Positions 32,553 through 61,372 are shown, counted from the stretch's first letter. The stretch: 64,000 bases of DNA from Eukaryota sp. GEM-RC1 (GCA_040285855.1 JAUFOQ010000006.1:62001-126000), one strand, 5' to 3'. Numbers and translations are program-made. The notes: a model not told the origin generated them from the sequence alone.

Positions 32553-35091
32553 TTACCAAAACGACCACCGGATACGATTTTTTGAGATCTTATTGATATA
32601 AGTTTGAGTTTGATGGTCAATAGGATTCTTCCGAAGATTAATTTCCATTATAACAAGATTATCTTTCACCGCTTCTGCCAATGCCACAGCACCTTCATTC
32701 CCAATAGAATTTGATTGTAAATGCATCATGGAAATTGTAGATGTATTTTTCAAAACTTCCGCCAAAACCATCGCACCGTCATTTCCGATAGAATTGGACT
32801 GTAAAAAAACCATGGAAATACTAGAATTAACTTTCAACAGTTCGGCTAATACTTTAACTCCATCCAATCCAATGGAGTTGTGTTTGAGAACAATCGTAGT
32901 TAGTTTAGAATCAGAACTGAATTGAAGATGACCAAACAGCTTTAAAAGGACATCATCAGACAATGAACAATTATTGAAATCAATGGAAGTCAATGTCTCA
33001 TTGGTCCTTATTAAATCACGTAAACTGTTGAGTGCATCGTCGTCAGCAATACGACATCTAGTAAGTGAAAGTTTTTAACTTTGACACTCACCAAAAAGGA
33101 TTGTAGAGAAGAAATTTCTCCTGCAGTTATTGTAGGCCATAAAGTTTGTGGAAAATAAGAAAATTCGCGTTTTCTAAAACTAAAAACATTAGGAAAGAAA
33201 CAAAGGTCAATTACCGATCTATACATACATCGGATTTGAATATAGTAGAGGACACTTAAAAAACTTTGATGCTCAATGTCACGACATTCAACACTCATAA
33301 TAGGAACATCTGCCTTCAAAGCATCTAGTAGTAGAGCTAATTCAACATCTGTAACTTGATTTTCATAAGAAATTAGTCCCTGATGTCGATTAATAGAATG
33401 AGGAGGAACGACAACTCCACATATCATTGAGTTTGCTGACGTGGCGAGCTGGAAAATCCCGACAAGAGTTTTAAAAGTCAAAGAATTCTTGTCGAGACTA
33501 ATATAATGTAGACATGATGTTGATTGAATATCAGCAAATATTTTTAAAACATCGTCATCAGACAGCTTACAATCATCGAATTCGACAGAAAATAAAGTGG
33601 TATTGACCCTGAACAAATCACGCAAACTGTTGATTGCATTTTCAGAAAATCGACACTTTTTTAAAATAAGACTTTCAATATCATGGTTTGATTGTAAAAT
33701 CGACTGTAAAGAGGCGATGTCTTCAGCTGAAACATCCGTATGAATTGAAGGTGAAAAACAAAACTCACCGTCATCAATGTTGACAAAATGAGGAGAAATA
33801 TTAAAATCTATAACGGAATTATAAATAGTAAAAACTTCAATAAATTCTAAAATTTTCGCCAAAGACGGATTTTGCCAACCACGGCATTTAACACGTTTAA
33901 TGGGAAGATTTGATTTTAAAGCATTTAAAAGTACACCAATATCATCTTCATTAAGAAGATATTGATAATCAATAGTACCAGTAGAAATATCAAGTGAATG
34001 TGGGAGAAAATCCAAATTGCAATTATAAGAATTTGAATAAATGACTTCAAAACATTTGATTAAAGAACTAAACTTCAAGTGAATCATATAAAATTTACAG
34101 AGTGTAGAATTCTGTTGAAGTCCTTGAAATATTGGAGCAAAAAGAAAAGTTTGACACTCAAAAGGACTAAAACAAAAAGAAGTCAACCCCGTGTTCTTTT
34201 CCAACATCTCTGCCAAGGCAATTGTCTCTTGTTCAGACGGATTTTGTTTGCCATGTGATATCACTAACGTATGAAGCGTAGTGTTACTCTCAAGTGCTTT
34301 ACAAACTGATAAAAGTGACGAGCTACCTTCCGTAATGAAAAGTGATTTTAAAACGGTATTGACTTTAAAAACATTGGCGAGAAGTTCGGTACAAAAGTCA
34401 GTACACAACATTGTTACTTCTTTTAGAGAAGAATTGTTCTCAAGCGCAACAAGCACGCGAGAATCAAGAGACTCATACCGAGTAATAGTCAGAGATTTTA
34501 AATTTTCACTGCTAAAGAGTGGCACGACAACAGAAGAATCGCCCTTTTCTTGACTCTTCAATGATACATCTGCTTCCTGAGTTGAACTACTTTTGGATAG
34601 AGAGGTGAAAAGACGAAGTAGATCAGAATTGTGAAGAGAACATGTGTGATCCCTCAATTTGATCCTTTTCAATGTCCTGTTTGTAGTGAACATGTCACCA
34701 AGATCATTGGCATGTGATGGACGGAAATCATAAAAATCTAAGTCCAAATCATGAACTGACGAGTTGTTCATGAGTGACTTACAAAACAAAGATAAACTAT
34801 CTTCAGAATAAACAGAGATAATGAGACGTTTAACTCGTGGTAAAAACTGGGGGGAAGATTCTAATAAGAAGCCAGATTGGCTAAATGTAGACAGACCCAT
34901 TTGAACCAATTCAACGGTGTGACATAGAGGTAGGATCCTCTCAGGATTAACACGGAACTGATGATCAATCAGGTAGATGGAATGTATATGAGCGTCAAAG
35001 AAAGAAGAGATCTTGGAAAAACGAAAAACACTACCAAAATCTGAAAGAAGCTTCCACAGAAGACACAAAGACACAAAGTTATAACTATATG
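32553..35091 (-). pseudogene. 3' part of an NLRC3-like LRR gene interrupted by the 26-kb element (frameshift near 33075)
   Basis: LRR motifs (LQSNSIGNDGAMVLAEVLK). The frame stays open up to the junction (YSYNFVSLCLLW...) and joins the 5' part at 61349-61716 in frame. Confidence 0.85.
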
Positions 35092-35092
35092 T

Positions 35093-36094
35093 ACAACATT
35101 TGTAACTACAACATTTGGTGATACAACATTTGTAATGACAACATTTGTAACTACAACATTTGGTGATACAACATTTGTAACTACAACATTTGTAACTACT
35201 GTCAACTACTGAATAGAGCCCCTACCGATTAGAGCCCCAGAGACAAGGGGCTCTAAAACAGAGCCCTACTGAATAGAGCCCTTAATTAAAAACACATCAC
35301 TAATTTAAATATAAGATATTGAAACTAATAAATCGCTCTATTTAAGAAAACTGAATAGACTAGTCCACATCAATTTTTTTTTACCATGGATCCAAAATCT
35401 CATCGTTCAAGAGCAGGAATTTCAAACCACCGACCCCGTCTTTCAAAAAGAGACGTTCTCAAGCGCAAATGACTGTTTGGGTTTAAACAAAAGATACTTA
35501 TTGAGCTAACAACTGAAAAAGGTGAAAGCTACTGTGCTTTCAGAACCACTGAATTTGATTGCTGAAGACGTTCTAGCTTAATTTATCTGTAACTCATAGA
35601 CTTGACCCATAAAATCACCGAACAATCAGTGGTTATTTAATCAAAAGTGAGCTTAAAAAACTACTGAATAGAGCCCTCACTTATAGCGGCTCTAAAACAG
35701 AGCCATACCGATTAGAGCCCTACCGATTAGAGCCCCTATGTAATTTTTTTGTGGCTCTAAATTAGAGCCCGGGCTCTATTCAGTAGTTGATAGTACAACA
35801 TTTGGTGATACAACATTTGTAATGACAACATTTGTAACTACAACATTTGGTGATACAACATTTGGTGATACAACATTTGTAATGACAACATTTGGTGATA
35901 CAACATTTGGTGATACAACATTTGTAATGACAACATTTGGTGATAGAACATTTGGTGGTACAACATTTGGTGATACAGCATTTGTAATTACAACATTTGT
36001 AACTACAACATTTGGTGATACAACATTTGGTGATACAACATTTGTAATGACAACATTTGGTGATACAACATTTGGTGATACAACATTTGTAATG
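35093..36094 (+). repeat. Left-terminal array of 27 x 15-bp units (ACAACATTTG + TAACT/GTGAT/TAATG), interrupted by a MITE
   Basis: 7 units at 35093-35197 and 20 units at 35795-36094, with an exact 15-bp period. Confidence 0.95.
35199..35793. mobile_element. 595-bp TA-targeting (Tc1/mariner-like) MITE nested in the 15-bp array
   Basis: 23-bp TIR CTGTCAACTACTGAATAGAGCCC (1 mismatch). TA duplicated at 35197-35198 and 35794-35795. Removal restores a perfect repeat unit. Internal AGAGCCC(C)TAC repeats. Confidence 0.92.
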
Positions 36095-36198
36095 AAAGTG
36101 TCGTATGTGGAATGAATTGTTGACATTGATATTTTTTTCTTCTATATATAATGTCGTTAAACACAACCAATACAATATACAATCTCAGTTTATCAAAC

Positions 36199-38627
36199 TT
36201 AACTAACACTACTATATCCCCCCATCACCCTCGCAAACATCACAGCCAACGAAAACGACTCCTTATATCCAATCCCGCAACAATACTCACACATCACTTC
36301 ACGAAATTCATCCAATATTCCCAAACACTGTTCATCACAAACCAATTCATCATTTAAATCTAGTATCGACACAACAAAAGTATTGGTCAACGACAACACA
36401 TAAAAGTACTTCTCCTCATCATTCAAATGAAAACTCAAAATTTTGGCCACTATTAAATTTAAATCTTTTAACAACTGAAGTTTCAAACTCATATGTGATT
36501 GACAGTCTGATGTTGAATCATTTGGTTCCAGTGCAGTGGTACAATATTGTGGACAATTGTGAGAACCTTTGTTTCTGTCTGCATTGCAATACTATGAGTA
36601 TTGTTCAAGTTGTTTTCAAAATCTGTCTGAAGACCAAGTGAATTTGTTATTCTGTTGATAGATGCAGTGTCCTCATGATCTGTAACTTTTTTTGATAATT
36701 TCAAACTAGGTAAATTCAAATTTGGTTTGAGAGTATTTCGAGACAATAGATTTGGTCTCAATTTAGGCAAAGTACTAACTGTAGTTTTTTTCAGTTTTGG
36801 CACAGGTTTGTGAAAAATTAAATCAGAATTGATGGCACTTACACTTTGATCATTGAGACAATCATCGTCATCATTCACAACAAAATCATTCATACTAGAC
36901 GACGCATCGTCATCATCATCAGTTTCATCATCTCCACTATCACTTCCAGAGACAACAACTTCATTATCGAATAATTCTAAAACTGAATCAGAAGTGGTAT
37001 TAAAATTGTCATTTTTGGAACATCTTCCACCAAATCTTCCTTAATTTCTTCACTGACTTGATCAAGAACATCAACAGTTTCCATACTATCACCAACACTA
37101 GAAATAATATTGGACGAAAATTCATCAAAAGTCTTCAACACAGAAGGCCAATTTCTAACAATTTTTTCATTTTGTAAAGACAAAGGATAAAGAGGTTTTG
37201 TAACTGGTCGACAGGGGTGAAAAGTGGAATAATACCACTGATAAAGATCCATCCTTGGCTTTGGAAATCTTGAAGAAATATCTAAAATTTTAATTGAGTT
37301 CCAATTCTTCACCCTACTCAATGTGACGTACAATTGGGCATACTCCCAAAAATTTAATGAAACTTCAATTCCTTCAATTGTTAGACCCTGAGATCTATGG
37401 ACTGTTATTGCCCAACAAGGACGAAGAGGATACTGCAATCGGGATGCTATAATTACAGGCTTTTTCTTCTCATTTAACACCTCAATTTCAAATTTAGTCG
37501 GAGTAATTTTGATTGGTTCTTCGTCCCTCCCGAATCTTACATTAATGAAATGTGAAGTCTCTGAAAAATCAATAATTTTGCCTTTTGGCCCATTTACTAG
37601 ACCCAGATCTGGTTTGTTTTGGGTAAACATTACCAAACCCCCGACGACACAGTGAAATTTTTGTTCGGCAAAATCGTTTAGCCTACTTGATAATTTTTTT
37701 ACATTTAAATCAACAGCCTTTTCCATTTGTTCCTCATTAGGCTTACCAAATGCCCAACTTTTACCAATTTCTGATTTAATTAAGGTTTCATTGAACTTAT
37801 CGAGGGAATGAAATTCAACATTTTCATTCCCTTGTTCAGATAATAATTCAAATTGCTTTAAATTTTCGTCGGCGACATCCTTGTTTCTAGCAAATAATTT
37901 GGTTGGACTTTCAATATTTTTGGCTAATGAAATTTGTTTCATATAGTCATCAAAAAGTCCGAGACGTATTTCATTCAAAAAATAAAAAAATTGACATCAC
38001 TTTCTTGTCGAATACTTCCAGATAATTCAATAAAATTTAAATTCAAATCCTTCCAAGACTGTGATGAAAACGTAAAGTCTGAAAGTTGAAGGACATTACG
38101 GGTGTTTGAATCAGACTTTACAATTGGTGCAAGTTGCAAAAAATCACCAAAAATTACAACTTGAAGTCCACCAAATGGTAACTGAGACTTTAGTAAATCT
38201 TTAAATATATCAGATGCTCTGTTGAATAATTCAGCAGTCAACATTGAAATTTCATCAATAACAAGCATTGAATTTCTGGCAGTAATAGATCTTAAAATAG
38301 ATTTAACACTCGAAGGCATAGAGCGAATGACATCAGATATTGGTTTTTCATAACGGATAAATTATAACCAAAGAGAGAGTGTAGTGTTTGACCACCAAAG
38401 ACAGTTGAAGCAACACCAGTAGTAGCAGTAAAAAAGACATGGCCACCTGGTCTCATTATCTTGGAACCCGCATTAGACCACCACTGTTTAAGACAGTACA
38501 GTAGGTAAGACTTGCCCGATCCGGCACCACCAGTAATGAAGAAATTCTTACGCTTAGAAGGTCTAGCATGAGTTATCGCTTGGAAGACCTGAGCCTGTTC
38601 GTTTGTAAGTGTGTTGATAATGGACAT
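36199..38627 (-). CDS. PIF1: PIF1-family SF1B DNA helicase with acidic/low-complexity tail and Cys-rich C-terminus (several frameshifts)
   Basis: LTNEQ, FFITGGAGSGKS, TATTGVA..GGQTLHSLF, LVIDEISML, PFGGLQVVIFGDFLQLAPI, IRQ, GLVNG, RLQYPLRPCWAITVHRSQGLTI, QLYVTLSRV. Linking the 36199-36893 ORFs is inferred. Confidence 0.9.
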
Positions 38628-39084
38628 TGAGTGTGTGAAGTGGTGATGTTTAAGATGCAGATTGTGCAGGGAAACTTTCCTTTCATTATAACTTATATAT
38701 CTACCTTCACTGTATGGACAATGCTGGTCGTACACAAGTCTTAGCAGCTTATTCTACCATCATCAACTTTCTATCGTCTCGTATGTCAAATTATATGTCT
38801 TTGTAAAATGTGATGTTGGTGTTGGGATCGATCTTGATGAAATAGAGCAATGTATCGTGTCATTGGACTACTTTCGAGCACTTCAACACATATCCGAGTC
38901 TTTTAAAGTCACCCCCTTGATCTTACAAATCAAACATGAGATCTCTCTCCTAGCACTCGTTGATGCCATTCTATCTGAAGACAAGGTACCTTCTGCTTCT
39001 GTTTCACTAAATCCAAGGTAATTTCTCCTCCTCCCTGCATAGCTGATGTTCCTCGTAGAAGTGGAACACACCGATCTGTGTTCT

Positions 39085-39888
39085 CTATATGTCGACTGTA
39101 ATCTCCTCATTGCTATATGTTATAAAATAAAACTGTTCTTTATACTTAAGCAATGAATCAATGAAACTCACAAACTCCTTGTCACAATCTGCATCACATT
39201 CACAAATCTCATTCACATCAAACAAGTTGAACAACGAAGACACCCTTTTAACAACAACGGACATTTCAATAAACTCCTCATCTTGACTGTTCTCACACAT
39301 AAGAATTATATCTGTCAATGGTTCAGAACATCCTGTAAACTCTTGGAATACTTCAGTAAGTAACAATTCCCTACATTCATCAACATTCAAGGACAGTAGC
39401 AAAACTGTCAATACTTTAACTAGACACTGCCGATCACTAATACTCCAAAGAAATTCGGAAATATCATTGAGAAACAATATTCTTGCACACTTTGTGATCA
39501 ACAACGTGTTATACATTGCTTGTAAAGAATTTGCAAGTACAAATAACAGGACAGAAAAACAATTTAGCATTCCCTCAACATCTACACTACTACTACAACA
39601 ACAAACAATTTTGAATACCACGTTCCACAATGGAATCGACGGCATTGTCTTACATTTCGCTAGTATATGTGAGCAGATTGAAAGTAAAGGAGATAAAGAA
39701 GTTAAGTCATCTTCAGGATTTGGATGAAAGCTCATACGATGTATGTGAGACAAAAGTGATGTCAATTTGTCAAGAGAGTTAAGTTCTCCTATGGCCATGC
39801 ATTTGATACACCCACATGCTTGTATTTGTTGAATGAGATATGTTTCAAAGAATGTTGCCAAACAATCTTGTAAGATATTGTTGGTCAT
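39085..39888 (-). CDS. Hypothetical helical protein with Cys clusters (element cargo)
   Basis: 267-aa ORF with CGCIKC and CECDADC. No family recognised. Confidence 0.55.
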   Translation of the reverse strand: MTNNILQDCLATFFETYLIQQIQACGCIKCMAIGELNSLDKLTSLLSHIHRMSFHPNPEDDLTSLSPLLSICSHILAKCKTMPSIPLWNVVFKIVCCCSSSVDVEGMLNCFSVLLFVLANSLQAMYNTLLITKCARILFLNDISEFLWSISDRQCLVKVLTVLLLSLNVDECRELLLTEVFQEFTGCSEPLTDIILMCENSQDEEFIEMSVVVKRVSSLFNLFDVNEICECDADCDKEFVSFIDSLLKYKEQFYFITYSNEEITVDI

Positions 39889-39930
39889 TGAATTGATAGT
39901 GAAGGAAAATATTTTTCCGGCAAAAATCCA

Positions 39931-41081
39931 ATGTCAGTTGTATGTCTTTATTCACTCTCATATCAGTCTTCAGATGATGCTACGTCTATGTCTGTCAATT
40001 ATAACAAGAAACGACGCTCTAACGCTTTCCGAAGAAAGAATATGAACAAGCACCAGGATGTCTATAACGTCTTTAGTTATACATCGACAAAGGTGGATGG
40101 TAAAAGTGTTCAGCTCGGTCCCAATGGGGATTATATTCTAATTTCACGACCTCGTGATAATTCAACAGATGGACTTTCTATAAGTACCAACAATGATGAA
40201 TTCCTCTCAGACTTGGTACAGTCTAAGGAAGACTTTTTGAGAATATTGTTCACTTTATTAATTCTAGAACTCAGTATTTAGCTTCCCAAGGCGCAAAAGT
40301 ACCAGACATTTCTTCACGTTTTAAGAAAGTGTATGGTATGAATGCTGAAGAAAACGAAGATCTTTCTGAGTTTTATTCGATTGCTCCTAATAGAACTCAT
40401 ATTGTTAAGAAAAAGAACAAGCACCTTAAAGAAGCTAAAGTTGTGAGCAAAGAAGCCACAACTCCAGAACCTCTCACAAAGTCCTCTCGTAACTCTCCCG
40501 TTGAATCCGCTCCTTCTAATCCTACTGAAAACAATGAAATTCAATCCTCCCTAGGATCACTTGTTTCCAAGACTTTGGGACATCAGTGTGGAAAGGAAAA
40601 GCCTATCTCAGGCAGCGATAAGAGAAAGAAGTTAGAGATAAAGAAGTTAAATGTAGGACCTGTTTTGCAGAAACAACTGGCAAGTAGAACAAAATAAAGA
40701 AGATGTTGTTTATTGAATGAGATAAGTGTGCATGGTCTAGTATAGGACTCCGAAGATGTGAAGTGAAGTCTAAGGTCTAGGTTCACTTTTCTTTCATACA
40801 TGAATCCACTGATCTAATTCTAGATAACTGAACCTCAACCTAAGAAGATTGTTGACGTTGACAGCGTTGTCAAGACTGGTCATGAGGCAGTGACTACTCT
40901 TTTAGCAAACTCTAAGCATTCACTTGACGAGAAGGAACTTGAACTCATCTTTAGTGCAGTTGCTTCCGCCCTTCGTGAAACCACCACCCCAGTAATTGAA
41001 AGAGCTATTCGAATTGCTGGTGATACTACTCGTGATACTGCTAGCCTCATACACCATATGCGATTTAAAACTCATCTTTAG
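39931..41081 (+). CDS. Hypothetical element gene, fragmented
   Basis: ORFs 39931-40281 and 40329-40697 link by one shift at a T-run (~40236: DFFENIVHF...KKVYGM). The link to 40890-41081 is unclear. Confidence 0.45.
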
Positions 41082-41201
41082 TGCAGTTGCTTCCGCCCTT
41101 CGTGAAACCACCACCCCACCCCAGTAATTGAAAGAGCTATTCGAATTGCTGGTGATACTACTCGTGATACTGCTAGCCTCATACACCATATGCGATTTAA
41201 A
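40942..41201 (+). repeat. Tandem duplication, 127-bp period, 2 copies
   Basis: AACTCATCTTTAGTGCAG...GCGATTTAAA at 40942 and 41069. The second copy has a 5-nt insertion. Confidence 0.92.
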
Positions 41202-41754
41202 TTTGTTTTTATAGATCATTATTGTAGTTTTCTTTGTTTAGATATCAATAAAGCATCCCGTTCTTCTTTTGTTTCAAGTCTCTTCCTTGTTAACACGAAA
41301 TCAACATATACGTTCTAGTTCAATGCATTGTCAATGTTGTGATACACAAGAGCATTGAAAATAACATTGTTGATGTATTAATTAATGAATGATGTCAAGT
41401 AAGTAAGTACAAAAATGTTGTATTTGAAGTGTAGGAGATATCCGAAGACAGAAAAGATGTCTGCTATCTGTAGACAAACAAGACAAGACTCCAAAAATGA
41501 ATACTGCAATTTCACTTTTCTTCTCTCTTGACATGCGTATGATCCTCCATCTTTCTAACTATAGACATTGTGATGATGCCAAAAGTAAGTTTTGGTCACG
41601 ATATGTGCTTGCTGCCACGTATATCTATGAGAAGTGACCTCTTTACATAGATGGCAATTCCGCTCTTCTTGTCAATTTGTCTCCTGCACTCGACAATTGG
41701 GCAAGATGAGTTGGGTTGTCATCTGGTGTATCGTGGTTGCACTCATTGCTTTGC

Positions 41755-43600
41755 TTTGCGTCCACATCCGCCATTTCTCAATTCCGCCATCCAGATACTG
41801 TTTCCATTGCACGGTCACGGGATTTGGATGGTGGGTTGAAGGAATGTGTTGTTCCGTGGTTTTCTCTTTATACACTTCTTCTGTGATGATGCTCCTTCAG
41901 TTATCTCCTCTGCTGAAAACACTGGATTTCTGACTGATTCTTGCTGAATGCCTCTTGCATTGTATGTTTCGTAGATCCGCTTGAAGATTGTCCTCTGAGA
42001 AGTATGGTTGTCTTGTGATTTGTCTTGGCCATACTGTATAACTTTCTTCGTTCCATCGTGATTGAGCCATTGTTAACAATCAAACAGATCGCTGAAAATC
42101 CTGAATTTTTAATCAGTAATCGTGCATCGGCCATACTGTATAACTTTCTTCATTCCCTCCGTTTCATTTCTCTCTGCTCTTCTTCTCAAAGTCATAATGG
42201 GAACATCTTGAGCAATAGCTTGGTGGTATATCTTCGTTCCTCTATACAATTCAGAAGTAGAGTAGATCAACAGATGTAAATGGTCTTTATGTCATATACA
42301 TCACCTCTTCAAATCCTGCCACCCCCGCTTCTTTGGGAACAAAATTCGTTGGTGAAAAACAGAAAATGTGACTTTCAATATCAATTAAGTTGGGGGAGAT
42401 ATCCAGATCAATCACTGTCCTGTTAATAGACAGAATTTTGCATAAAGTAATAAGGCCTTTCATACTGGGACTTCTCAATCCAAGACTGCGGGAGAAATCA
42501 ACTCCATTACCATTCAAATGAAAAAAAAATCTCTCTTTAATGTCTTTCTGTTTCCAGGCAATGGAATACTTAGTCTCATTGTCATGTTTGGCGTCCAATC
42601 ATAATCATTACACGATGTTGTTAGATCATTACCTTCAATGGAAACGACCTGCCCGCTATGTTTACAGTTTCCCAAGCACATAGTTCTACCAGCCACAAAA
42701 CTCTCCGATTTTATCAATGATTTATGTGATAGTGATTTGCAAGAAAGAAAAAACGTGTATAAAATTGTAAAACACACGTTCAAAACAATGGAATGATGTC
42801 ATGAGTTCTGAGAATAACAGTGGAGAATGTCGTTCATTCGTTGCTCTCGTACAACTTTTCTGTCTTTTTACGATTTGTTTATCTAAATTAGTTTTTTTGA
42901 AAAAACTAGAGCGATATTTAAATGAACTAAGATCTTAATTTCACGTTTCGTGGATATGGAAGATTCTAATGTATGTTTCCTTTGCTAAAACAACTCTCAA
43001 CTATTGAAGAATCCGAATTTGTTAGTTCACTACTGTCAACCCTGTCACCTCAACTGAACCCGAAACCCTGCAATGGAGTCTATCTTAAACAGGGTATCTT
43101 AAACAACAATTAAAAAACGATAAGGAAGGCTTTTCAACGAGGTTTTCGAAACTTTTCTTAGTTGATTTAGCTGGATCTGAACGTGTTGGTGATGCAGGAA
43201 CGTCAGGGATTGGCTTGGTGATCCCTAATACTATAAGAAACCCTGCAATGGAGTCAGTCTCGAGTTGAGTTAGATAAGGATAGGGAGGCTGTATCATCAA
43301 AGCTACGGCAGTGGAGGTTGAAAATCTACTGTTTATCAACAAGTGCAGTTGTATTTGAGTTACAAAAAGTTTTAATTACAACTGATTCAGTTCCAAAAAC
43401 TTTCAAGGCTTGTTTCTATGAAGAGAAATTTTTTAGACGTAGACGCCTTACACAGTATTCAAGAAAAGAACGAAGTGAACAAAACTTGGTCCACAGATTT
43501 GCTCTCCAATAAGGTGATCCAGATTTTCACATGAATCAAAAACTTGCCATTGGAACGTTGAATATAGACAACGACGTTGTCGAAACTCTTCATACAGAAT
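41755..43600. other. Patchwork of short fragments copied from the element's own genes and from host genes
   Basis: At least 12 segments match other parts of the element, plus an LRR-gene fragment and a kinesin LVDLAGSER fragment (see findings). Confidence 0.88.
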
Positions 43601-44004
43601 GTTTTTGATTTAAACTTTTCGTTACTAAAAAATTGTTTTAGTATCTTCAAGTAAATCTGTAGTTCTCATCATGAAAAGAACCAGTCACAAGATAATTAAT
43701 AAAGTTAAGGCTCATTGTTCTGGGCCATCCTTTGTTTGTACTGAACAGAATCACAATGAAGGTCAACAATGTGTAAAGAAATGGCGACTTCCACGAATTA
43801 AGTGTCAGGACCTGTTTGCAAATTCTTGAACAATAGATGGTTAGGACAATACAAATTGTACATTAATCCACGTGAATGACAAATTCAACACAATGAATAA
43901 ACCCTTGTTTGTCTACTGTCGTATTGTATTGATTGAAAGTCAAAAATGGAATTTTTGTTAGACTATGACTTACTTTAGACATAAATTTTCCTCTCTGTAC
44001 AAAC

Positions 44005-45703
44005 ATGTCAACATCATTCCGTGTCCGCCAACGTTTTCCCAAACAACAGATGCAACTAGACTTCGTAAATGACATTCCTGCGGAAGTTACAGATGTTGAA
44101 ATAATCATCGTCCAAGACACTGCGGGCGACTTCTTCATTGTCGTAGTGTATAATGGACATATTCAATACCATTTAAATCTCGTTCTTGTAACATCAGACG
44201 TTGCACAAACAAAGTTCCTTTTCAGCTTAACATCGTCCTCTAATCTTCGTGCAATCACTCCCCTTGAAGATACACAGTGTATTAGCGACGTGATATCTTT
44301 CATCGTAAAAACCACCCTCTCATCTCATAACCTGATTGTATCCCCTTCTTCTCTTTCCAGTTTGACTAAAACAGTTAACGAGGCTCTTGCTATTCCTGTT
44401 AAAACTACTACTCCTTCAATTTCTACTTCATCTGATTGTTGTTATGTCTATTCAGTTATCCATTTTATTATACGTCACATTGAACGTTTCTTCGAACTCA
44501 ATGTAAATCATTTCAAAGAACTAGATTTTGATACTCCTGCTACTCCTCTCTTCAATTGTTTTTATTCGAAAGATATTGAAGGTGTTCGTGCGCAAATCGC
44601 TGACATTTATCCTGTTTTTGCGGCGGGTCAACACGATCCTTTCAATTTCCTTGCCAAACTTTTAAAAACACTTGACAAGGAATTCCGCACCACCTTGCCA
44701 TCTTCATCAAATGATGAATTACACTCTTTGTCAAAAATTTGAACCACAGTCTGAATCAGAAGAAACTGATACTACAGACTTCCAATATTATGGATATGAT
44801 TTAGATGAGAAACCATCACCAAAAAAAGTTCAGACTCAGTTAGATGTCAAATCATCACTTCAGCAAGATTTAGATCAATTGTTGATAACTCAAAAATTAA
44901 AGCATTCTTGTGCTGTTAATGCATTTTGTTTCTGTATTAAAACAACAACAAAATGTTCTTGGTGTGGGACTGATCCAACATCTAAAATTCACTTCGCCTT
45001 GGAAATTAACAAGGAAAGTATCCAAAGGCGGTATCCTTCTAGACCAACCGATCTCGAATCATTGTTGCAAGCTCATCTACCTTTTCGAAAAGAAATAATT
45101 TGTGCTACTTGTCCTGAACAAAAATCAGAAATTACTGAAACTTTTGCTTCTCTTCCAAAAGCTCTTATCATTAGACTGACTGGACATCCTCAACCAGTTA
45201 TTATTTCTTCAAATCTATCACTCTATCTATTCCTGTCTTCTGAAGCACAATTGGGTTCAGAATCGATTGAGTTTTCCCCTACCAATGAAATCAACTCACA
45301 ACTGCCACTTAAGGACATTTACACATTGTCTCATTATCCAACATCAGAAGAATTGTCTGTCTTTGACATTTCTAATGAAAATGAAAGAAAGTGTGGGAGT
45401 CAGCATTTTGTTAGAGGTAGTGATTGGGAAAGAAGTACCAGTCGAACCTCAACCGCCAAAGTGTCAACCAAGACCAAAAGTAGTGTTGAAGAAAAATACA
45501 CATACAGACTGCTGTCTGCGATCTGTCATTACGATTCCCTTGCTGACGGTCACTGTGTGACATATGCAAAGGAAAAAGAAGGTTCTTGGTGGTTACATGA
45601 TACCAATAGTGATTGCAAGAAAGGTGTAGACGAACAGACAGTATTAACTGAGATTTCTTTAAATGGCTATGTTTTACTTTATCAACATCAATATTTAGAA
45701 TAA
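44005..45703 (+). CDS. USP-family (peptidase C19) deubiquitinase-like protein, frameshift near 44735
   Basis: Cys box-like SDCCYVYSVIHFI, GQHDPFNFLAKLL, CSWC...CATC, SLPKALIIRL, His box YRLLSAICHYDSLADGHCVTYAK..WWLHD, GYVLLYQ. Confidence 0.85.
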
Positions 45704-51800: not shown

Positions 51801-53529
51801 GATTAGTGAAACTACTGCATTGCCCCAGTCACCAGTAGCTACAAGTACTTTGGATTTGTCATCTTGGACTAAGTCGTATTGTACTGCCTCTTCTCATACT
51901 GCTAAATATTTAGGACAAAATGTTCAAATCTTAAATTTTACACGTGAAGAAATGAGAACTTTCTATGTTGTTTTTTCATTTGAATCAAAAATTGCCATTG
52001 GAACGTTGAATATAGACAACGACGTTGTCGAAACTCTCCATACAGAATTTTTTTCTGCTAATACTCCTACTCCTACTCCTACTCCTGTGTTGAATGTTAC
52101 ATTACGATTTGTAGTCTACAACATTGATAAAGAACTCCGAAGGTTCAGTCGCAGTATTGATGATGATAGACCACAGTGTAAACCATTTGACAATCAATTG
52201 ACTATGTTTGCACTTCATCATCAATTGCTTTACCAGGCCATACTGATTGCTTTTGAAGGGCCCATATTTATGATTCAATACAAGCCAAAAACAGACAAAC
52301 GAAAGACTATTCGACAAGTATTACCGTTGCCGTTGGCCAGAGACAGTTTTGATTCTCAATGTATTGACATGGCTGCTGCAAAAATTGTTTTGTTGTCGCA
52401 ACGAAGACTCTGTTGTTGATCATTTTTGTGCAGGAAGATGAAAAAAATTGTGTTAATTGTTCAGAATTATCAACATTAATGGATTTAAACATGTCTGAAA
52501 TTGATCGTGACGAAGAATTCAAAAGTTTGAAGTGCTATGACGATTTCGTTCTAGTTGTCGGCACTTGTTCCATCCGAAAGTTAGACTTGTATGAAAGGGA
52601 GCTGCTTGGTGAACAACCTGTATGGGAATTTTGCTCCTGTCACAAAGATGACAGAATTATAGATGCAGTGTATGTTAAGCATTATGACACAATAATGTAC
52701 ATCACGGAATTTGGGTTCTGTGTTGGTTTCGGTTTGAAACTACCAAAGAAACAGATTCAATTTATTATTGATTGTTCAAGTGGTGAGTTCACAGGTCAAC
52801 TGTTAAAAATCGATTTTTGCAATGATTTAAATTCTTTCATTGTTCTGAAAAGGATGGAACACTGTTAATGCTTTCAGCATTATCTGTGATTGGTATTTCT
52901 GGTGTACCATTAGAAGTTCATGATGTTCGCTCTTGTGATTCAAAAAATATTTACGAACAACGAAGTCTTGAACTACATGCTTTAACTGTTCAATCGACTC
53001 AACAAGTTCAACAAGTTGAGATTCCTGTTGTTGAAGAAAGTGCTCATCCCATCGACATTGATACGACGAAAAGACTTCAGTTTCTTTCATCTAGATGGAG
53101 TGTTGATGAAAAAATGAACAAGGTGAAGCATTTGTTGACTATATTTGAGTTACAAAAGTTGTAATTACAACTGATTCAGTTGAAAAAGTAAGGAAACTTT
53201 CAAGGCTTGTTTCTGAGGTTGCTTTTAAAGTTGTGACACTAGAGGGTGGAAAACCACGAAAGATTACATCAAGTCTGAAAATATTCGATGAACAGACTGA
53301 TCCTGTTTTATTGATCAGTACTACTCAATTAGCGGTTAACCATTCTGTTCGGGCTGATCTTTGTATAATCTTTGATCTGCCAAATGATGCCAGACATGTT
53401 TACAATTTGTATGAACATAATCAAAAAATCGTTGTCTTTTACGATTCTATCCGTGATAAGGACAAAAAGCAAAATTTGGAAAAACACTTCTTTAGACCCT
53501 CAGGATTGCAAGCACTTGATTTTATATAG
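45854..53529 (+). CDS. ~2550-aa polyprotein: 47-aa repeats, 2A peptide, CCHC knuckle, DEAH/RHA helicase, long unknown region, degenerate helicase-C-like end (many 1-nt frameshifts)
   Basis: DVEQNPGP, CLFCLLPGHSYNDC, GQTGSGKS, IVCQPR, MVDEVHER, ICSATM, LVFLPG, IVIATNIAESSLTIDGVKFVIDCG, QRSGRAGR. Consecutive + ORFs link mostly at homopolymer runs. Full continuity is inferred. Confidence 0.75.
45886..46461 (+). repeat. 4 x 141-bp near-identical tandem repeat upstream of the first 2A motif
   Basis: CCACATC phase at 45891, 46032, 46173, 46314 and 46455. Confidence 0.95.
46463..46513 (+). other. 2A-like ribosomal skipping (StopGo) peptide WKRDLSIDGDVEQNPGP
   Basis: Exact D(V/I)ExNPGP consensus, in frame with ORF 45854. 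Confidence 0.88.
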
Positions 53530-53998
53530 TCTTTCAATAATTCATTGATGTTTTTTTATTATGTAGAACAATATAATAATTATAAGTCTTTATTACAATT
53601 TTTCTTTATTTATCAATCAACGAAGAAGTTGATTGATTGGGTTTATCTGGTCTAAATTTATAATTTATTCCATGATTTTTCACATAAACTATGCGACCAC
53701 ATCTACACTGAATATGTAACAAATTGGTCTGGTTTTATATGTCACATTTTCTGACATACTAAATCTGTAACAAATTTCTGTCAGATTTCAGGTGGATGAA
53801 ATTCACGGATTGTTCTGTGTGTAATAACTATGTAACAAAACATTGGTATTCAGACTACGTCTGACACAGTTCAAACTGCAAAATTGAACATTGTAATATT
53901 GTACAATTATTATTGTTTATTTGCTGTGTTATTCTTATATGTTTTACAAAATTATAAATACATCTATATTGTACTATTTATTCTCTATCACTGTCAAT

Positions 53999-55524
53999 TC
54001 ATTTTTTTAAAAGTCTTTTTGATTCCAAAAGCACTTGCAGTGGTTTTAATTCTTCGTTTTCCTGTTTTTTCCCTAAAACTTCATTTTCGTCTTTTGTCTT
54101 TGACGATTTGTTTTCAAATTTTGTTGTTGAACCATCAATTACATTTTGTTCTGTCACCAAGTCAGGTTGTACACTCTGAAGTAGATCATACATAACAAGA
54201 CATAGATTTTTTCTTGATCTGTTAGTGTTTAATTTTGTCTGATTTTGTTCCTGACGTGCATCAACCATTAATCCTTGTAAAATTAAAGTAACATTCAAAC
54301 AGACAATCCATCCACAGATAAGAGACGATGTTGACTGTGCAAAAGGTATATAGTAGTCCACCTTATACTCTGGTAATCTTGCAAACAGATTTGTTTCCCC
54401 ACATCCATAAACAGTTCTAAAAGGATTAACGATTAATTCAGTGGTTAATGAATAATCCAAAGAATCATAAATATTGAATAATAAAACATTTGCTTCATTT
54501 AGAAACAATTCAATAAGAATCCAATGACCAGATCCTGCATCACCAGGAACATGTTCTTTCACCAAACATAATGGGGCAAGAATTCTTTTCCTGATTTTAG
54601 TGTATCGACAATAGCCTTACCAGAATGTAAGGCATAGCATATTGGATCACCTACCAACTGTTGAGTTTCTTGAGATTGCAGGAATTTGTACCTACTTGAT
54701 TTAAATTTTTGGAATGCAAGCATCACAATGAAATCAAGTTCAGAACTCAACAAGAGTTGTGTTTTACCTTCCCTATCATCCTTTGTCAACATTTTCTCAA
54801 TATCACTAAATTCAAATTTTAATTTTGAATTTATGTAAAACTGATCACTGATTAAATCTACAGAAAGAATCAACGGGTTACGTTGTTTTTTGCGTTTCAT
54901 AGGTTTAGATAAATTAGCATTATCACTGACTGGAACAGGAACTATTTCAGATGGTTCAGAGAAAATAGAATGAATATGATTGATTGCGAAGTTATCAATA
55001 CGACGTTTTGGTGAAGGAAAAACGACTTGCGATGGAGTATCGTCAAAGCGAGTATTGTCACAATCATGTAAAAGAGGAGGAGACTGAGGCTGAGGAGGAG
55101 GAGGGGAACGAGCAATTGTAACTCGTTTAACGTCTTTGAGTAGATCCTTAAGATGATTTAGAGTTGAAGTTGTTGAAGGAAGTGGAAGAGATATGTCACG
55201 CTTCTCATAAGAACCATCAAAAGGAAAGAGATGAACAGTTTCTAGATCAACATCTAGCACAATGGCAACGGCTGATTTGTAGTTGAGGCAAAAATCCATG
55301 GTACCCTTTTTAAGATCATCTGGTAAGTCAGATGTTGACACTTCCGTTATGTGGATGGATTTAGTTCTCCATGAATTGTATGTTCCATAAGGAAGAAGAA
55401 CAAGTGACAAGTTAACTGCATGCTTATCAGCAAGCTTTACAACAAGTTTCATATATGTTTTGATGGTACGGGAACGACTTTCTTGTTCAGAAGTATTTCT
55501 GAGTTTGAAGATTGAGTAGGACAT
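53999..55524 (-). CDS. Ulp1/SENP-like (peptidase C48) cysteine protease with N-terminal extension, frameshift near 54570
   Basis: GSGHWILI (His), IYDSL (Asp), AQSTSSLICGWIVC (Gln, Cys). Upstream LLSSELDF lies in ORF 54559-55524. Confidence 0.78.
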
Positions 55525-55638
55525 GGGAAATTCTGATATAGACTTTATTACAGTTTTCGTTTTTTAACACGTGAATTCACACACACATGTCCATTACAGT
55601 CTGTGTGGGATTTCATTTTCCTTCCTCCTACAGTATAA

Positions 55639-58600
55639 ATGTCGTTTGTTCTGCATCCAAACAGATGTTGTCCGCCATTCTGTCCTTATCTGACTCAACT
55701 TGTGACTGACTCCATTGCACGGTTTCGGGCTCAGTTGAGTTTAGATAAGGACAGTTCTTTCCCTCCACTGCCTCCACTTCTGTTGCTTCGATAATGCCGC
55801 CATTCTGTCCTTATCTGACTCAACTTGTGACTGACTCCATTGCACGGTTTCGGGCTCAGTTGAGTTTAGATAAGGACAGTTCTTTCCCCTCCACTGCCTC
55901 CACTTCTGTTGCTTCGATAATGCCGCCATTCTGTCCTTATCTGACTCAACTTGTGACTGACTCCATTGCACAGTTTCGGGCTCAGTTGAGTTTAGATAAG
56001 GACAGTTCTTTCCCCTCCACTGCCTCCACTTCTGTTGCTTCGATAATGCCGCCATTCTGTCCTTATCTGACTCAACTTGTGACTGACTCCATTGCACGGT
56101 TTCGGGCTCAGTTGAGTTTAGATAAGGACAGTTCATTCTGTGTTTTATCAACACATACATTTGTTGCCATGAAGTACTCGTCTCCCCTGTTTATCCCTTC
56201 CCATCCTCCGTTCCCAAAAGACCTCACCGCTGATGGTGATATTGAATCCAATCCAGGACCCGTAACTCAAGAAGCCATAAACTCAGTTTATCCTAATCAA
56301 TGGGTTGATGACGAAGCGATAGTGGAGTACTGTAAAGTGATATTTCAACAAGCAGGGTTAGACTTTGAAAGCATGTTTATCCATCCGACCACATGGCTTC
56401 AATACATTGTTTCACCAGATGTCCCGCTAGATCAATGGTTGTTGACGAAAATTCAGCGAAATCAAAGAACAAACTCCAAATATCTCTTTGTTCCCCTTAG
56501 TGATACCATGACTAGAAATGCTAATTATTCCAGAGAAGGTGTCACTGGTTCTATTGGGGTTTAGCCATTATAGACTGTTGTGAAAAGGAATGGATCTTCA
56601 TTGATCCGATGTTAACTACCGTCGATATGAGTAAGTCTATGGTAAAATCAGCTGTAGACATAATATCCGAACTACTTGTGCCATGGGGGTATGTTTTCCG
56701 TTATGTGCCTGTGACTAAAACACAATCTGCTAACGACTGTGGAGTTTATGTCATTGCGTATATTCAAAAATATGTTGAACTTTTTAAAAGACTCACGTAT
56801 GTTCCGTCTCTAATGTATTTGGAAACTTATTTGGTCCAAGTGAACATTGAACTTCAAGCAAACATATTTTGTGAAAAAATTCTGGAGGTCTTGTCTCAAC
56901 AAAGAACACTTTATCTACAACAACGTCAAACCACAGTAGCTCCTATTGTACCATCGTTACCCATTCAACCTCCTGCCGGTAAAGAACATCCAACCACTTC
57001 AATTCCTCTCACAGGTTCACGTCTTGCTAGCACTAAAGCATCTACTGGTTTAAGCACTAAAAAAAGTAAAGCCAAAATTTCTGATATTCCATCACCACGA
57101 GGTTCACCTTTAATTCAACGAAATAAATTTAGAACTACCAGCTCCCTTGTTTCAACTGGTGACACTCCAATGCGAAAGACTCACCGCCGTATGTCCACAT
57201 TGGAATCATCGGAATTACCATCATCTGAACTATCATCGCCATCTGAACTATCATCATTAACTGAACTACCACCATCTGAACTACCACCCAAATCACAGGC
57301 CTCCATTATGTCGTATCCATCGCCAATTCAAGAAGAAATCCATAAAATGGAAGTAAATCTACACACTGAGCCTATCGAACAAGAAATACAAATTCAAGAC
57401 TTTCTTAATTCCCCTTTACTTTGGAACAATCTGCCAACTTTTTGTTTAATTCATGTTCAAAGTGATTTTGCCAAAAAGAAAGAATTAATGGCAAAAATGT
57501 TCAACTTGTTCAAGATGATGATGACATTGAAACTGTTGAAGGTGAAGCTGAAAATCAATTAGAAGTTAAACGTGATTCTTCTGTTGATCCGATTGTATCA
57601 ATTTCCATCCAGATCATTGATCACAATGAGTTTAATGAAAAACATTTATTTTCTCATGGCAATTTTGATACTACAAACTTGGATTTGTGTACTTTACATA
57701 TTTCAGATAGTGAATCCAGTATGCTTAAAAACTTCATCTCCTTCATTACTCAACATTGTCCACGATTGTTTGTGAGTTATGACTTTCACTTAGATACATT
57801 TCCCTTTCTTGTATCACGTTGTCAAGTCCTCAAAATCAATACAACGTTTACTTTTCCAGAATTTAAACCCTATATTCCCTTTTGGTTCAACAAATGGTGT
57901 AAGGAAACAACTTTTGGTCCGTTTTTTAGTCTCGATTTGAATGCTGTACTGAAGAATTTTTATGTCTTTACTGGTGGCCGTTTTTTGGAAAATGTTGTTC
58001 AAATTTTTCTTGAAATGAATAATTTTTCTAAAAATGAAACTGTCAAACGCTTGGAAGAACTTAATCATGACTCTGATCCTGATGAAGTTCAATTGATCAA
58101 TAATGTCCAAAACTTGCATGGCATAATTGACAGTATTAATGTTTTAGTTCCAGACAATCCCAAAGTGAAGGTCGATAAGATTAAAAAGAAATTTGTAAGA
58201 AATTTGGAGAAAGTAAATGAACTTTGGGCCAAGGAATCGACAAGACCGCTATTGTTGATGAACTCAATTCAACAATTACCTCTGATTGAGTACTTGTTGG
58301 CTGACCTACTGGATCCCAAAAAACAAACATTACGTTCAAAGTCACCAATGAAAGTGGTTAAGAAACGACTAGACAATGTTGTATTCAAATCGAAGGTTAA
58401 ATTTATTGAATCTCGTGTTAAGAGAGCTCATCAAGTAAGAGTACGTGGTTCTCTCTTTTTGAAACATTTTTTGTTCATAATTTTCATCATTCGGGTATTT
58501 TAGGTTACATTAAGAAGTTACTGCCTGCTACTGTTCCAAATGTAACTGTTAAGGAAGAAATGAATTCTGATACAAATGAGTCAACTGATGAAGAAACAGA

Positions 58601-61222
58601 TGTACATTCAGAGTCTATCCATGCTGCTACTCCTCCTATTAAATTAGAAAATATTGAAGATGTGAGTGGTGAACCTGAACTTGACCTTTGGACCAAAATT
58701 CAAACTAACAAATTTGAATTGCCAGACTGGAAGAATTTTTTACGTTGAAATCAATGGAACAAGTGTTATCTATGATGACGATTAGGGACGAAAGACTTGT
58801 AAACAATCAGAATCATATTAGGACTGTAAAAGAGTCTTTAGAAAACATAACTTCTAAACCAAATGAGGCCTCAACTCAAAATCAGTTTGCTCAACACTTC
58901 TTGATGCATTACATTCCTCGTTTAGAACTAGCTGCTCGATCTGTTGGACTTGATAGGATTGTGTTTCCCAGTAGTCATCGTTTATCTCGTATATTGCATT
59001 ACATGGCTACTGAAATTATAACGAATTACAAGACTAACATGAGTGAACACTTTCACGAATATGTTTTTCAGGTATTTAATTTGGTTATCCTGAAAAAGAT
59101 AGACTTAACAAGCTTACTGATAAGAATCAACGACAAGAGTTGTGTACAAAGCTTAATGAAGTCAGACAGTTGATCATTAATGGGGAAATTTCAAAAATTA
59201 ATTTTCAAGATGTTGAAGTGTTTCCTGATCCCAATTCTAGACTGAGTTTACTATTTTTTAACTATTTGTTTACTTTTTTTGAAGGTAAAATGGAAAAAAC
59301 AATCTATTATGCTGAAAAAGTAGATCCTTTGAAATTCTTAAGTCATGCAGTGTATTTGAAACGTCTTGTTGAAGACTCTTGTACTGGTGTTACTGCCAAT
59401 AATCCTTTTCCTCTGACAAAATCATTGATTCCTAATCATATTAGGTTGGATACTTCATGGTTTAAAGAAGTTTATACATCAGAAATTAAAGGTAACTTTG
59501 ATGACGTTCGAAAAGATATTTGGCACTCAGTTTTGAAACCAAAGTGTCTTCCAAAGTCATTGTCTCATGACTTCAAATACAGTTCTATTTCTACAGATGG
59601 AGTTAGCTGTAGTTTAATGATGATGCGGAAAGATCTGCTTGATGGGAGAGGAAATCCTCATAAGAAGGTGAAAGCGGTTAACCACACCAGTACTGAAAGG
59701 TACATTGATTCTTTGAGTTCAACAGAAATTCAAAACTTAAATTTGAAATCAAAAAGAATTGTTGCTATTGATCCTAATCAGCATGATTTGATGTACTGTG
59801 CTTCTTTAAAATCTAAGGAGGAAAAGGAAATCGAAGGTTTCGATACATCAGCCAAACTCAGAAGAAGAAAGATTTCTCCAAAATCATCAAAGAAAAAAGG
59901 AAGCTTGAAAAAATTAAAAAATGAATTGAAGGATTGGAAAGACGCACCCACTATTGACAAACCATCAACTGTCAAGTTGAAAAATCGTGATAATTGGAAA
60001 GTATTCAGATACACTGCTGGGGAGCGCAATGCCGATATTAAAAAGTCTCCATGGAAAAGAAAAAAACAAGGAAGGAAAGAAAAAGAGCTAAGAGAAAGAA
60101 GAGGAAGCTGGAGAAGAAAATAAGACGATATAATCTCCACCGTTTATCTGAGTCCGAACGGTTACAACAATACTCTACCCAATTTATTCACATTCCAGAT
60201 GGCAGACGCATTGACATAAATGGGCAACAAATTTTAGATCAATGGGGCTCTAACTCACCAGGTAGTAAATCTTGTGAATTGACTCAGTATTCTGCTTTTG
60301 TTCTTGGTAAAGAAATTACCTGTTCCTTATTACGATCACCCACTACTGATCAAAGAACTACTGCAGGAATTTACGAAGAAAAGTGGTTTAGACGTAGACG
60401 CTTAACACAGTATTCAAGAAAGGAACGAAGTGAAAAAACATGCTTCACAGATTTGCTCTCCAGTTTGGAAACCCAGATGAAGTCATTGTTGGGTATGGAG
60501 ACTGGAACGACACTGCTTTTCGTCGAAGAAGAGGTAAAGCATCTACTGTGAAAGGTGTTTCAATTCGGAAATTATTGAAAAAATTTGGATTTAAAGTGTT
60601 CCTAGTTGATGAATTTAAGACCAGCAAATGTTGTTCTGCATGTGTTTCCAGAAACGACGAAGGTATCTGTTCCAATCCTGAAAGGATAAAAGTCACTGAT
60701 CCTCATTGGAAGAAGAAGTTACAGAAGGAAGAGAAAGAATTAAAAAAGGAAATTATGGAACACAATCAATTAGACAATATTGTGCAGCGTAACTTTGATG
60801 ATGAATGGACTGACCAGTTGCCATTATCGAAAGAAAGATTGAAGAGCAAAAAAGTCTCACCATGGGGCTTAGTTGAATGTGCTAAATGTCATGTCCTCTG
60901 GAATAGAGACTTCAATTCTGCTATCAATATTTACAATATTGTAGATGGAACCATTCAAGGTCAAGGTAGACCTGCCATCCTCGAGAGACCAAAATCTCAA
61001 ACAACACCTGTCGTGGATGGCGGGAATACAGATCAGATTCCTAAGAAAAAGACTGTGAGTAAGGGTAAGGGTAAAGCAAAGCGTCCTCTAACAAAAGTCA
61101 GAGGTCCTAACAAGTGTGGTATATGTTTTCAACCTGGACATAACAGAGCAACTTGTCCAAATAAGCCTAAGAAAGATGTACCCAAGGACTCACACGTAAA
61201 CCAGAAAGATCAGGAATCTTGA
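55639..61222 (+). CDS. ~1860-aa polyprotein: 42-aa repeats, 2A, Ulp1-like protease, S/P linker, degenerate PolB-exonuclease-like domain, Fanzor1 nuclease, CCHC knuckle
   Basis: Eight single-base restorations (~55761, 56541, 57475, 58470, 58740, 59095, 60042, 60435) join all + ORFs from ATG 55639 to TGA 61222 (5584+8=5592 nt, 1864 codons). Motifs: DIESNPGP; GHW/IDP/TQSANDCG; IVAIDPN, VDEFKTSKCCSAC, CAKCHVLWNRDFNSAINI; CGICFQPGHNRATC. Confidence 0.8.
55672..56134 (+). repeat. ~3.7 x 126-bp near-identical tandem repeat upstream of the second 2A motif
   Basis: CCGCCATTCTGTCC at 55672, 55797, 55923 and 56049. The first unit is one C shorter. Confidence 0.95.
56211..56261 (+). other. 2A-like ribosomal skipping peptide FPKDLTADGDIESNPGP
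   Basis: Exact D(V/I)ExNPGP consensus, in frame, immediately before the Ulp1-like domain. Confidence 0.88.
58348..61222 (+). CDS. Fanzor1-type (eukaryotic TnpB-like) RNA-guided RuvC endonuclease moiety
   Basis: YKTNMSEHF, IPNHIRLDT, ISTDGVSCS, RuvC-I D (59770), VIVGYGDW, RuvC-II E (60611), CxxC..CxxC, RuvC-III D in WNRD (60908), GRP. Confidence 0.92.
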
Positions 61223-61372
61223 ATCTATGAAGTTAGCCCGTCTTAAAAGACTTTGCGAATGAGGATATTTGTCTAATAATTTAGACATTTGTTCAAACTG
61301 TGAGTTTTGCTCTATATGAGATCATGAAAATGTGAAGGGTTATGCCCTTATGCATTTGGAATGAAATTCACA
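61223..61372 (+). ncRNA. Candidate Fanzor omega-RNA (scaffold to element end 61348, plus ~15-20 nt flank-derived guide)
   Basis: Lies between the Fanzor stop and the mapped element end. Hairpins TGTCTAA-taat-TTAGACA (61270-61287) and AAGGGT-tat-GCCCTT (61335-61349). The 5' boundary is unknown and may overlap the ORF. Confidence 0.6.

Follow-up and report, generated by a model that had tools for sequence, protein, structure and literature searches.

A 26-kb Fanzor-bearing element without terminal inverted repeats in a leucine-rich-repeat gene of Eukaryota sp. GEM-RC1

Known Fanzor elements and the present locus

Two groups of Fanzor1 elements that lack terminal inverted repeats (TIRs) have been described, and both bear on the 26-kb element reported here, which splits a leucine-rich-repeat (LRR) family gene in a window of 64,000 nt from Eukaryota sp. 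GEM-RC1 (GCA_040285855.1 JAUFOQ010000006.1:62001-126000; all coordinates are relative to this window). MCi-2 of Mucor circinelloides, as presented by Bao and Jurka 2013 (PMC3627910), is an unclassified element of about 7-9 kb with 11 copies; it carries Fanzor1 at its 3' end, its 5' regions are variable, its duplications of 11-12 bp start with a fixed motif, and one subfamily contains a partial Crypton recombinase. CRe-1/2/3 of Chlamydomonas are regarded as non-autonomous Helitron2 elements with Fanzor1 and no transposase of their own (PMC3627910, PMC10288648); their 3' ends are reported as intact, their 5' ends as truncated, and their 7-19-bp duplications as lying just downstream of a fixed motif (PMC3627910). 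The long duplications around such elements are treated as unexplained in both sources, a role of Fanzor in them has been speculated (PMC10288648), and what Fanzors do for their transposons is named an open question (PMC10530073). Reviews of TnpB-driven homing (PMC13565253) and of giant transposons (PMC6431247) give the wider context.

By analogy, MCi-2 is the closest precedent: the present element likewise has Fanzor1 at the 3' end, a duplication within the 11-12-bp range, no TIRs, 5' modules that are swapped in some copies, and no assigned class. It differs from MCi-2 in its size of 26 kb and in carrying Pif1, a DExH helicase, a USP protease, Ulp1-like proteases, 2A polyproteins and a PolB-exonuclease-Fanzor fusion. 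With CRe-1/2/3 it shares Fanzor1, the lack of a recognisable transposase of its own and a duplication beside a motif; the CRe ends match verified Helitron2 elements, whereas here neither asymmetric inverted repeats nor a Rep partner were found and the cargo is far larger. Judging from these comparisons, the element would work most like the TIR-less MCi-2 and CRe-1/2/3, and we believe that it represents a real giant family that is probably undescribed. The original prediction, made from the sequence alone, held that no known superfamily fits; there is indeed no clean fit, but the end structure already has a precedent in MCi-2.

Other classes agree with the element less well. SPu-1 and other mariner-type Fanzor1 elements (PMC3627910) resemble it in the nuclease (SpuFz1 is the best structure match) and in a right end followed by TA; as described, they measure a few kb, have TIRs at both ends and duplicate only TA, whereas here the left end has no TIR and is unlike that of a nested miniature inverted-repeat transposable element (MITE), and the duplication is 11 bp long (TA plus 9 nt). 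As regards non-LTR retrotransposons, there is no reverse-transcriptase match in the element and no A-rich tail at either end. Polintons/Mavericks are characterised by long TIRs, a full PolB, an integrase and a capsid; the present element has no TIRs, and of PolB it carries the exonuclease portion alone, in a fusion with Fanzor.

The literature search, with Repbase and article supplements outside its scope, returned no description of a giant Fanzor element with PIF1/Ulp1 and none of Fanzor in metamonads; nor, judged by title and start of abstract among the matches listed (15 of 242), did it return a PolB-exonuclease-Fanzor1 fusion, or, among the 12 of 66 listed, a DNA element of 26 kb with 2A polyproteins. 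For free-living metamonads, a paper in which a GEMRC lineage is named gives two genomes as 55% and 48% repetitive, and its main text does not mention Fanzor (PMC11316075). The fusion, kept in subfamilies 30-47% alike, would be a new architecture for an RNA-guided nuclease, and the 2A polyproteins would likewise be new in a DNA element of this size.

Element ends, predicted guide scaffold and Fanzor

The minus-strand host gene is split by one insertion, according to protein alignment with a full-length paralogue of 942 residues (P0002): residues 1-121 align to 61716-61372 (61% identity) and residues 118-774 to 35041-33062 (62%), and the host halves joined without the element are colinear with the paralogue. 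The original prediction of an insertion into an LRR gene is upheld by the alignment of both halves; its boundaries are not. It placed them at 35088 and 61352, at a TATG regarded as a possible target duplication or recombination core, allowing for up to 4 nt of ambiguity. Instead, the element extends 45 bp beyond this on the left and 21 bp beyond it on the right, to 35043 and 61373, flanked by a host duplication of 9-11 bp, because the 11-mer TACCAAAATCT restores colinearity with the paralogue and the outer 21 nt pair with the interior of the element.

Direct repeats of at least 4 nt between the two junction zones number 333, and an open frame is restored by 57 of them. The single longest is TACCAAAATCT (35032-35042, 61374-61384); some 11-mer is common to about 4% of random zone pairs if neither frame nor colinearity is required. 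Joining at TACCAAAATCT yields a frame of 787 residues that reads R-L-D-F-G-S-V-F against R-I-N-F-G-S-S-F in the paralogue, while joining at TATG yields 814 residues, i.e., 27 extra ones missing from the paralogue. The claim that excision at TATG restores the LRR frame is thus correct as to the open frame, but TATG is only one of the 57, adds these residues, and cuts through the terminal stem considered below. P0002 is itself a predicted protein, and a predicted intron could hide at the junction; the evidence of RNA pairing is independent of it. On an alternative reading, the last two bases of the repeat are the first two of the element, which gives a 9-bp duplication and CTG...CAG ends (35041-61373).

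The right end is placed at 61373 since a predicted RNA structure closes exactly at the duplication, with one further pair into its T; the pairs of 61298-61304 with 61373-61367 have probability 0.99-1.0. In this fold, the 21 nt located beyond TATG are paired to the interior of the element (-25.3 vs -11.7 kcal/mol), a gain of 13.6 kcal/mol that was attained by 3/2000 shuffles and by 3/2000 host 21-mers. Hairpins had been noticed at this end from the start, and folding confirms them (z -3.4). Also considered was a TATG element sitting in an intron or in a small older insertion of 75-81 nt; this was rejected, as the right 21 nt of such an insert pair with the interior of the element.

On the folding model, the 76-nt stem-loop is likely the scaffold of the Fanzor guide RNA, with the right flank as the guide, which agrees with the earlier proposal that Fanzor1 sits at the end supplying this RNA. 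For SpuFz1, the scaffold is about 75 nt long and the motif is CATA. The stem-loop occupies the usual place of Fanzor guide scaffolds, and those of Fanzor1 in print include the transposon end and the duplication (PMC10711439). The one Rfam match (E 0.59) is at the level of chance, and a metagenome scan with a 20-nt motif of the right end returned one chance match, in a bacterial gene. As for the nuclease, its sequence has an intact catalytic D/E/D: AIDPN, VDEFKTSKCCSAC, CAKCHVLWNRD and STDG are present in the window and in the copies, which corresponds to the RuvC D, the shifted E six residues before the C4 zinc finger, the RD and the TDG. The structure search matched three Fanzor1 proteins, SpuFz1 best.

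At the left, 49 bp of unique sequence are followed by a 15-bp tandem array, the latter as originally predicted; CATTTG is seen again at two places within the final 90 nt on the right (P ~0.009, post hoc). The absence of TIRs was also claimed correctly: the ends match in 8 of the first 20 bases, and no exact inverted match between the end regions is longer than 6 nt. A MITE lies within the array. Taken together with TA, the left terminus of the MITE agrees with the right terminus of the element, read inward and likewise with TA, in 10/13 bases, a level attained by 25/127,974 window 13-mers (post hoc), while the left terminus of the element matches the MITE in 5/13 bases, the left end having no matching repeat. 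The nested TA-flanked MITE implies a TA-targeting transposase in the genome. From this one site we infer a precise right end of the TA type and an irregular left end. Some copies might pair the left end of the MITE with the right end of the element.

Several further observations concern the junctions. The direct repeat extends to 14/15 bases at 35028-35042 / 61370-61384 (the left copy is preceded by ACAC and the right one by ACAG), so that the target resembles the right end of the element. On the minus strand, i.e., in the direction of the host gene, the left end (35043-35075) reads as a pyrimidine-rich tract with CAG at its end, and there are GT donors at the right junction (61360-61384); speculatively, splicing from a GT inside the duplication would keep the host frame intact with two residues added. 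A search for host proteins ending in the peptide of the left end gave no candidate, which is weak evidence.

Proposed installation by Fanzor cutting and the rival explanations

Pfam was applied to 44 long and 84 short frames and to 45 proteins from copies and relatives, PHROGs to 24 frames and NCBIfam to 16, and motif scans were added. Within this scope, no DDE transposase, HUH Rep, recombinase or reverse transcriptase was detected in the element; for the first three the original prediction had said the same. The PHROGs "transposase" matches were rejected, being located on the TnpB zinc finger.

We tentatively propose, at somewhat less than even chances, that the 26-kb element was installed here by a Fanzor cut of the empty site followed by repair synthesis copying from the right end; the mechanism is derived from one site, the ends being read for this copy only. 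The first entry at a new site would need a TA-targeting integrase, acting in trans or lost from the left arm of this copy. Fanzor would then cut the element-free allele a few bases past TA, the broken end on the right would copy the element from the occupied allele, and the copied end would be joined to the left-hand end still holding TA and 9 nt. Pif1 has a role in break-induced replication, and it plausibly would assist the copying step. Such a cut past TA with copying and end-joining would account for the exact right end, the irregular left end and the TA+9 duplication. Template switching during the repair synthesis would explain both a mosaic of self-fragments within the element and the swaps of modules between subfamilies. 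The mechanism would also predict the patterns given above for CRe-1/2/3 and MCi-2. What speaks for the proposal as a whole, still at short of even chances, is the right end fixed by RNA structure, the likeness to the TA-flanked MITE, the intact Fanzor1, the lack of a mobilising enzyme, the stand-alone Pif1, the mosaic and the module swaps.

A number of points weigh against this proposal. The constancy of the right end, the variability of the left one and the target motif rest on one pair of ends. On this proposal, the CTG...CAG ends of the 9-bp reading would have to be put down to chance or microhomology, and a length of 9 bp is usual for Mutator. With an identity of only 62%, the nearest paralogue makes guide-directed jumps between paralogues hard to invoke for the first entry. 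Polyprotein D has about 1,000 residues with no assigned domain, which could hide an integrase. A frameshift in Fanzor at 60040-60066 recurs in 14/18 fetched proteins spanning this zone (with two different read-through forms), and many copies may therefore lack an active nuclease, unless the shift is a sequencing error or programmed; the in-frame A-AAA-AAA run there could presumably act as a slippery site for a -1 shift or reflect a systematic error in the homopolymer. Finally, the co-location of modules with Fanzor is not significant: 17/47 lie within 30 gene numbers (random mean 12.1, p 0.07) and 6/47 within 15 (random mean 6.7). A wider generalisation, namely a giant transposase-free class with 2A polyproteins and at least 100 copies, spread by its own RNA-guided nuclease with the exonuclease-like domain and Pif1 steering host repair, seems doubtful to us.

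The chief competing explanation is a Mutator-like element, giant and non-autonomous, that lacks long inverted repeats and has CTG...CAG ends (35041-61373), the 9-bp duplication TACCAAAAT, cut-and-paste movement by a Mutator transposase from elsewhere, and Fanzor only restoring excised copies; we hold it to be unlikely, albeit deserving of serious weight. The 9-bp reading provides ends matching over 3 bp together with the duplication of about 9 bp expected of Mutator. Non-TIR Mutator elements of the KAONASHI type, with 9-nt duplications, Ulp1 cargo and captured fragments, are described in PMC2528002, and fragment capture is typical of Pack-MULEs; the present element differs from KAONASHI in having Fanzor, helicases and 2A polyproteins and in having no match to a Mutator transposase domain (Pfam, NCBIfam). 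Fanzor1 has been found in transposase-less elements of the Mutator type with 9-bp duplications (PMC3627910), although these, as described there, have clear TIRs. The rival also requires that the two bases after the duplication equal the first two of the element by chance, and it leaves the likeness of the right end to the TA-flanked MITE unexplained. That the element is autonomous and of a class yet undescribed, with one of the unassigned domains of polyprotein D as its integrase, appears improbable. The repeats-2A-zinc-knuckle layout of this polyprotein is kept at 39% identity and matched only by 8 lineage-like relatives, and all modules found have a high copy number; however, a model of the first 254 residues consists of helices only (pLDDT 59.5) and does not resemble RNase H or HUH folds, and the motif scan recognised no catalytic motif in polyprotein D.

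A rolling-circle element resembling Helitron2, mobilised in trans by an HUH Rep as has been suggested for CRe-1/2/3 and with the duplication arising from Fanzor cutting, has in our view a slightly smaller, similarly low probability. The hairpin does take in the terminal bases, Fanzor1 and variable duplications are found in the CRe elements (PMC3627910), and Helitron-like elements carry helicase, UCH and Ulp1 domains, i.e., a helicase with ubiquitin/SUMO protease cargo (PMC11417382). Unlike these, the present element has a target duplication and a helicase of the cellular Pif1 type rather than the RepHel type (143 bits to Pif1 vs 82 to Helraiser), with no Rep fused to it: no Rep domain is seen in helicase copies of 680 residues, of 13 further copies listed, 7 have the same initial methionine and none reaches further upstream. 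Neither an HUH/Y2 motif in any coding frame (motif scan) nor an asymmetric inverted repeat pair above 6 nt between the end regions was found. A Crypton-like tyrosine-recombinase element with a TATG core is very improbable, despite the TATGG ends and occasional Ulp1 of CryptonS (PMC3212892) and the presence of Fanzor in Cryptons (PMC10530073, PMC13565253). According to PMC3212892, Cryptons have terminal direct repeats of 4-6 bp and no target duplication, whereas the duplication here is host-derived, and the 27 extra residues of the TATG join are bounded by this perfect 11-bp repeat; the profile searches gave no tyrosine recombinase match in the element (Pfam, PHROGs, NCBIfam). A misassembly of unrelated repeats, which the many single-base frameshifts could bring to mind, is hardly credible, as the exact host duplication, which restores colinearity with the paralogue, would not result from a misjoin.

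Gene content, copies and accompanying features

The features are collected in Table 1. Pfam agrees with the original prediction as to the PIF1, USP (UCH), DEAD/Helicase_C and TnpB-type Fanzor domains, and both predicted 2A peptides are present as motifs. The pair of Ulp1-like proteases stands in part: the plus-strand one is weak in Pfam (E 0.019 here, ~1e-5 in variant copies), and the minus-strand one, with no Pfam match, is recognised by a motif read by eye, its N-terminal open reading frame (ORF) having no usable Atlas match. Overlooked at that stage were the PolB exonuclease-like domain fused N-terminally to Fanzor1 (Pfam E 1e-7), the nested TA-flanked MITE and the 1.85-kb self-fragment mosaic.

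Table 1. Positions of the element, its parts and the flanking host gene in the window
Feature	Position	Strand	Basis or remark
Host LRR-family gene, 3' part	32553..35042	-	P0002 alignment
Target duplication, left copy, 11 bp, TACCAAAATCT	35032..35042	+	Longest direct repeat; paralogue colinearity
Whole element, 26,331 bp	35043..61373		GC 36.4% vs 36.5% in host part
15-bp tandem array, core ACAACATTTG, ~7 + 20 units, MITE in between	35092..36089	+	Follows 49 bp of unique sequence
Nested MITE, 595 bp, TA duplication, 23-bp inverted ends, 13 AGAGCC sites	35199..35793		Inside 15-bp array
Pif1-type DNA helicase, no Rep domain, frameshifted here	36202..38627	-	Pfam; other copies read through
Small ORF, no family match	38692..39021	+	Pfam, NCBIfam
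267-residue ORF	39085..39888	-	Nearest Atlas clusters unnamed or HEAT/ARM-like helical proteins, a lead only (39088-39933)
Broken low-complexity ORF, 132-bp tandem duplication at its end	39931..41201	+	No family match
Mosaic of self-gene pieces	41759..43606		1001/1848 nt in 32-177-bp pieces, 80-98% identical
USP/UCH-type deubiquitinase, N-terminal part of no known family	44005..45703	+	Pfam
Polyprotein D, ~2,500 residues across frameshifts	45854..53529	+	Pfam, motif scans
2A motif of polyprotein D	46490-46513	+	D(V/I)ExNPGP
Ulp1-like protease, ~505 residues in other copies	53999..55524	-	H-W...D...Q...C read by eye
Polyprotein F, ~1,850 residues across frameshifts	55639..61222	+	Pfam, structure search, motifs
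2A motif of polyprotein F	56238-56261	+	D(V/I)ExNPGP
Terminal stem-loop, 76 nt, predicted Fanzor guide-RNA scaffold	61298..61373	+	RNA folding
Target duplication, right copy, starts with TA	61374..61384	+	With the next bases would supply the guide (predicted)
Host LRR-family gene, 5' part	61374..61716	-	P0002 alignment

Polyprotein D consists, in this order, of 47-residue repeats, the 2A motif, a zinc-knuckle helical domain, a DExH helicase, an unassigned region and a degenerate helicase C-terminal domain. Polyprotein F has 42-residue repeats, 2A, the Ulp1-like and PolB 3'-5' exonuclease-like domains, Fanzor1 (D/E/D, zinc finger) and a terminal zinc knuckle. Both thus open with near-perfect coding tandem repeats just before 2A, of 141 bp (45886-46461) and 126 bp (55672-56138); the relatives P0123, P0135 and P0136 keep this layout with unrelated repeat units. 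We presume that the 2A motifs would split both polyproteins and that the proteases would probably counter host silencing. The domain after 2A in polyprotein D, which is modelled as all-helical, has its 8 lineage-like relatives among 1.84 billion representatives, a ninth match being the 2A motif alone. For its fold, Foldseek gave no match at E<=0.001 (best Z 5.4, uninformative), and there was no sequence match among solved structures; the modelled fold of the region after the DExH helicase is unusable (pLDDT 26).

The genes of the element are multicopy, which at the gene level bears out the predicted existence of other copies. Ten window ORFs were looked up in the protein collection and 6 were present, with cluster sizes of 19 for Pif1, 14 and 9 for polyprotein D, 16 for Ulp1-like and 26 for Fanzor, one ORF being a singleton; additional Fanzor clusters have 18, 8 and 11 members. 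The named cluster members are labelled Eukaryota sp. GEM-RC1 (NCBI), and a 36% identical relative bears the label Eukaryota sp. TZLM1-RC. For the closest Fanzor type, 47 gene numbers are listed, and they correspond to 46 separate places on 10 contigs; two of these places are only 35-74% identical to the window, so that about 44 remain. Two diverged subfamilies have 10 and 13 listed places, with the Fanzor core at 58-70% and ~45%, and both retain the exonuclease-Fanzor fusion (P0118, P0110), while in P0123 and P0130 a different 5' module is joined to an exonuclease part 96-97% identical. Gene numbers follow the window order at some places (Pif1 2212, Ulp1 2224, Fanzor 2242; Pif1 4850, Fanzor 4870), and the other copies are likely whole 26-kb units. 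A capture-recapture estimate of more than 100 Fanzor places (1 place common to lists of 14, 23 and 10) was dropped in favour of the direct count, as these lists were not drawn independently. Given dozens of young copies in three subfamilies, the choice between cut-and-paste and nuclease-driven copy-in should be decidable by sequence alone, the discriminating features across copies being duplication length, target motif and left-end variation. Viral contigs gave no match for the C-terminal part of Fanzor or for Pif1; two loci in them contain a 29% Fanzor relative of 656 residues (L002 9134-11104 in a 214-kb contig, and the same match in L003).

The donors of the mosaic lie inside the element for 22/22 matches, against 0-3 matches in five control regions; it also carries a kinesin fragment and an LRR-family-like fragment. 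Its pieces are in both orientations, and five of them abut nearly gap-free at 43237-43606. It could be template-switch filler or a source of small RNA.

Long reads shorten homopolymer runs. A run of this kind is present in 18/24 inspected frameshift zones (counted without a width control and including one zone of the host gene), and the frameshifts of the window are read through in other copies; on these grounds most of the ORF-breaking frameshifts are probably sequencing errors. In the host part, a scan of 25 frames gave no transposase. Its region 8553-31801 has ordinary eukaryotic genes (MCM, SP-RING, SNase, UFM1 ligase, PCMT) with frameshifts of the same type, and Vps39 is located at 5678-7138.

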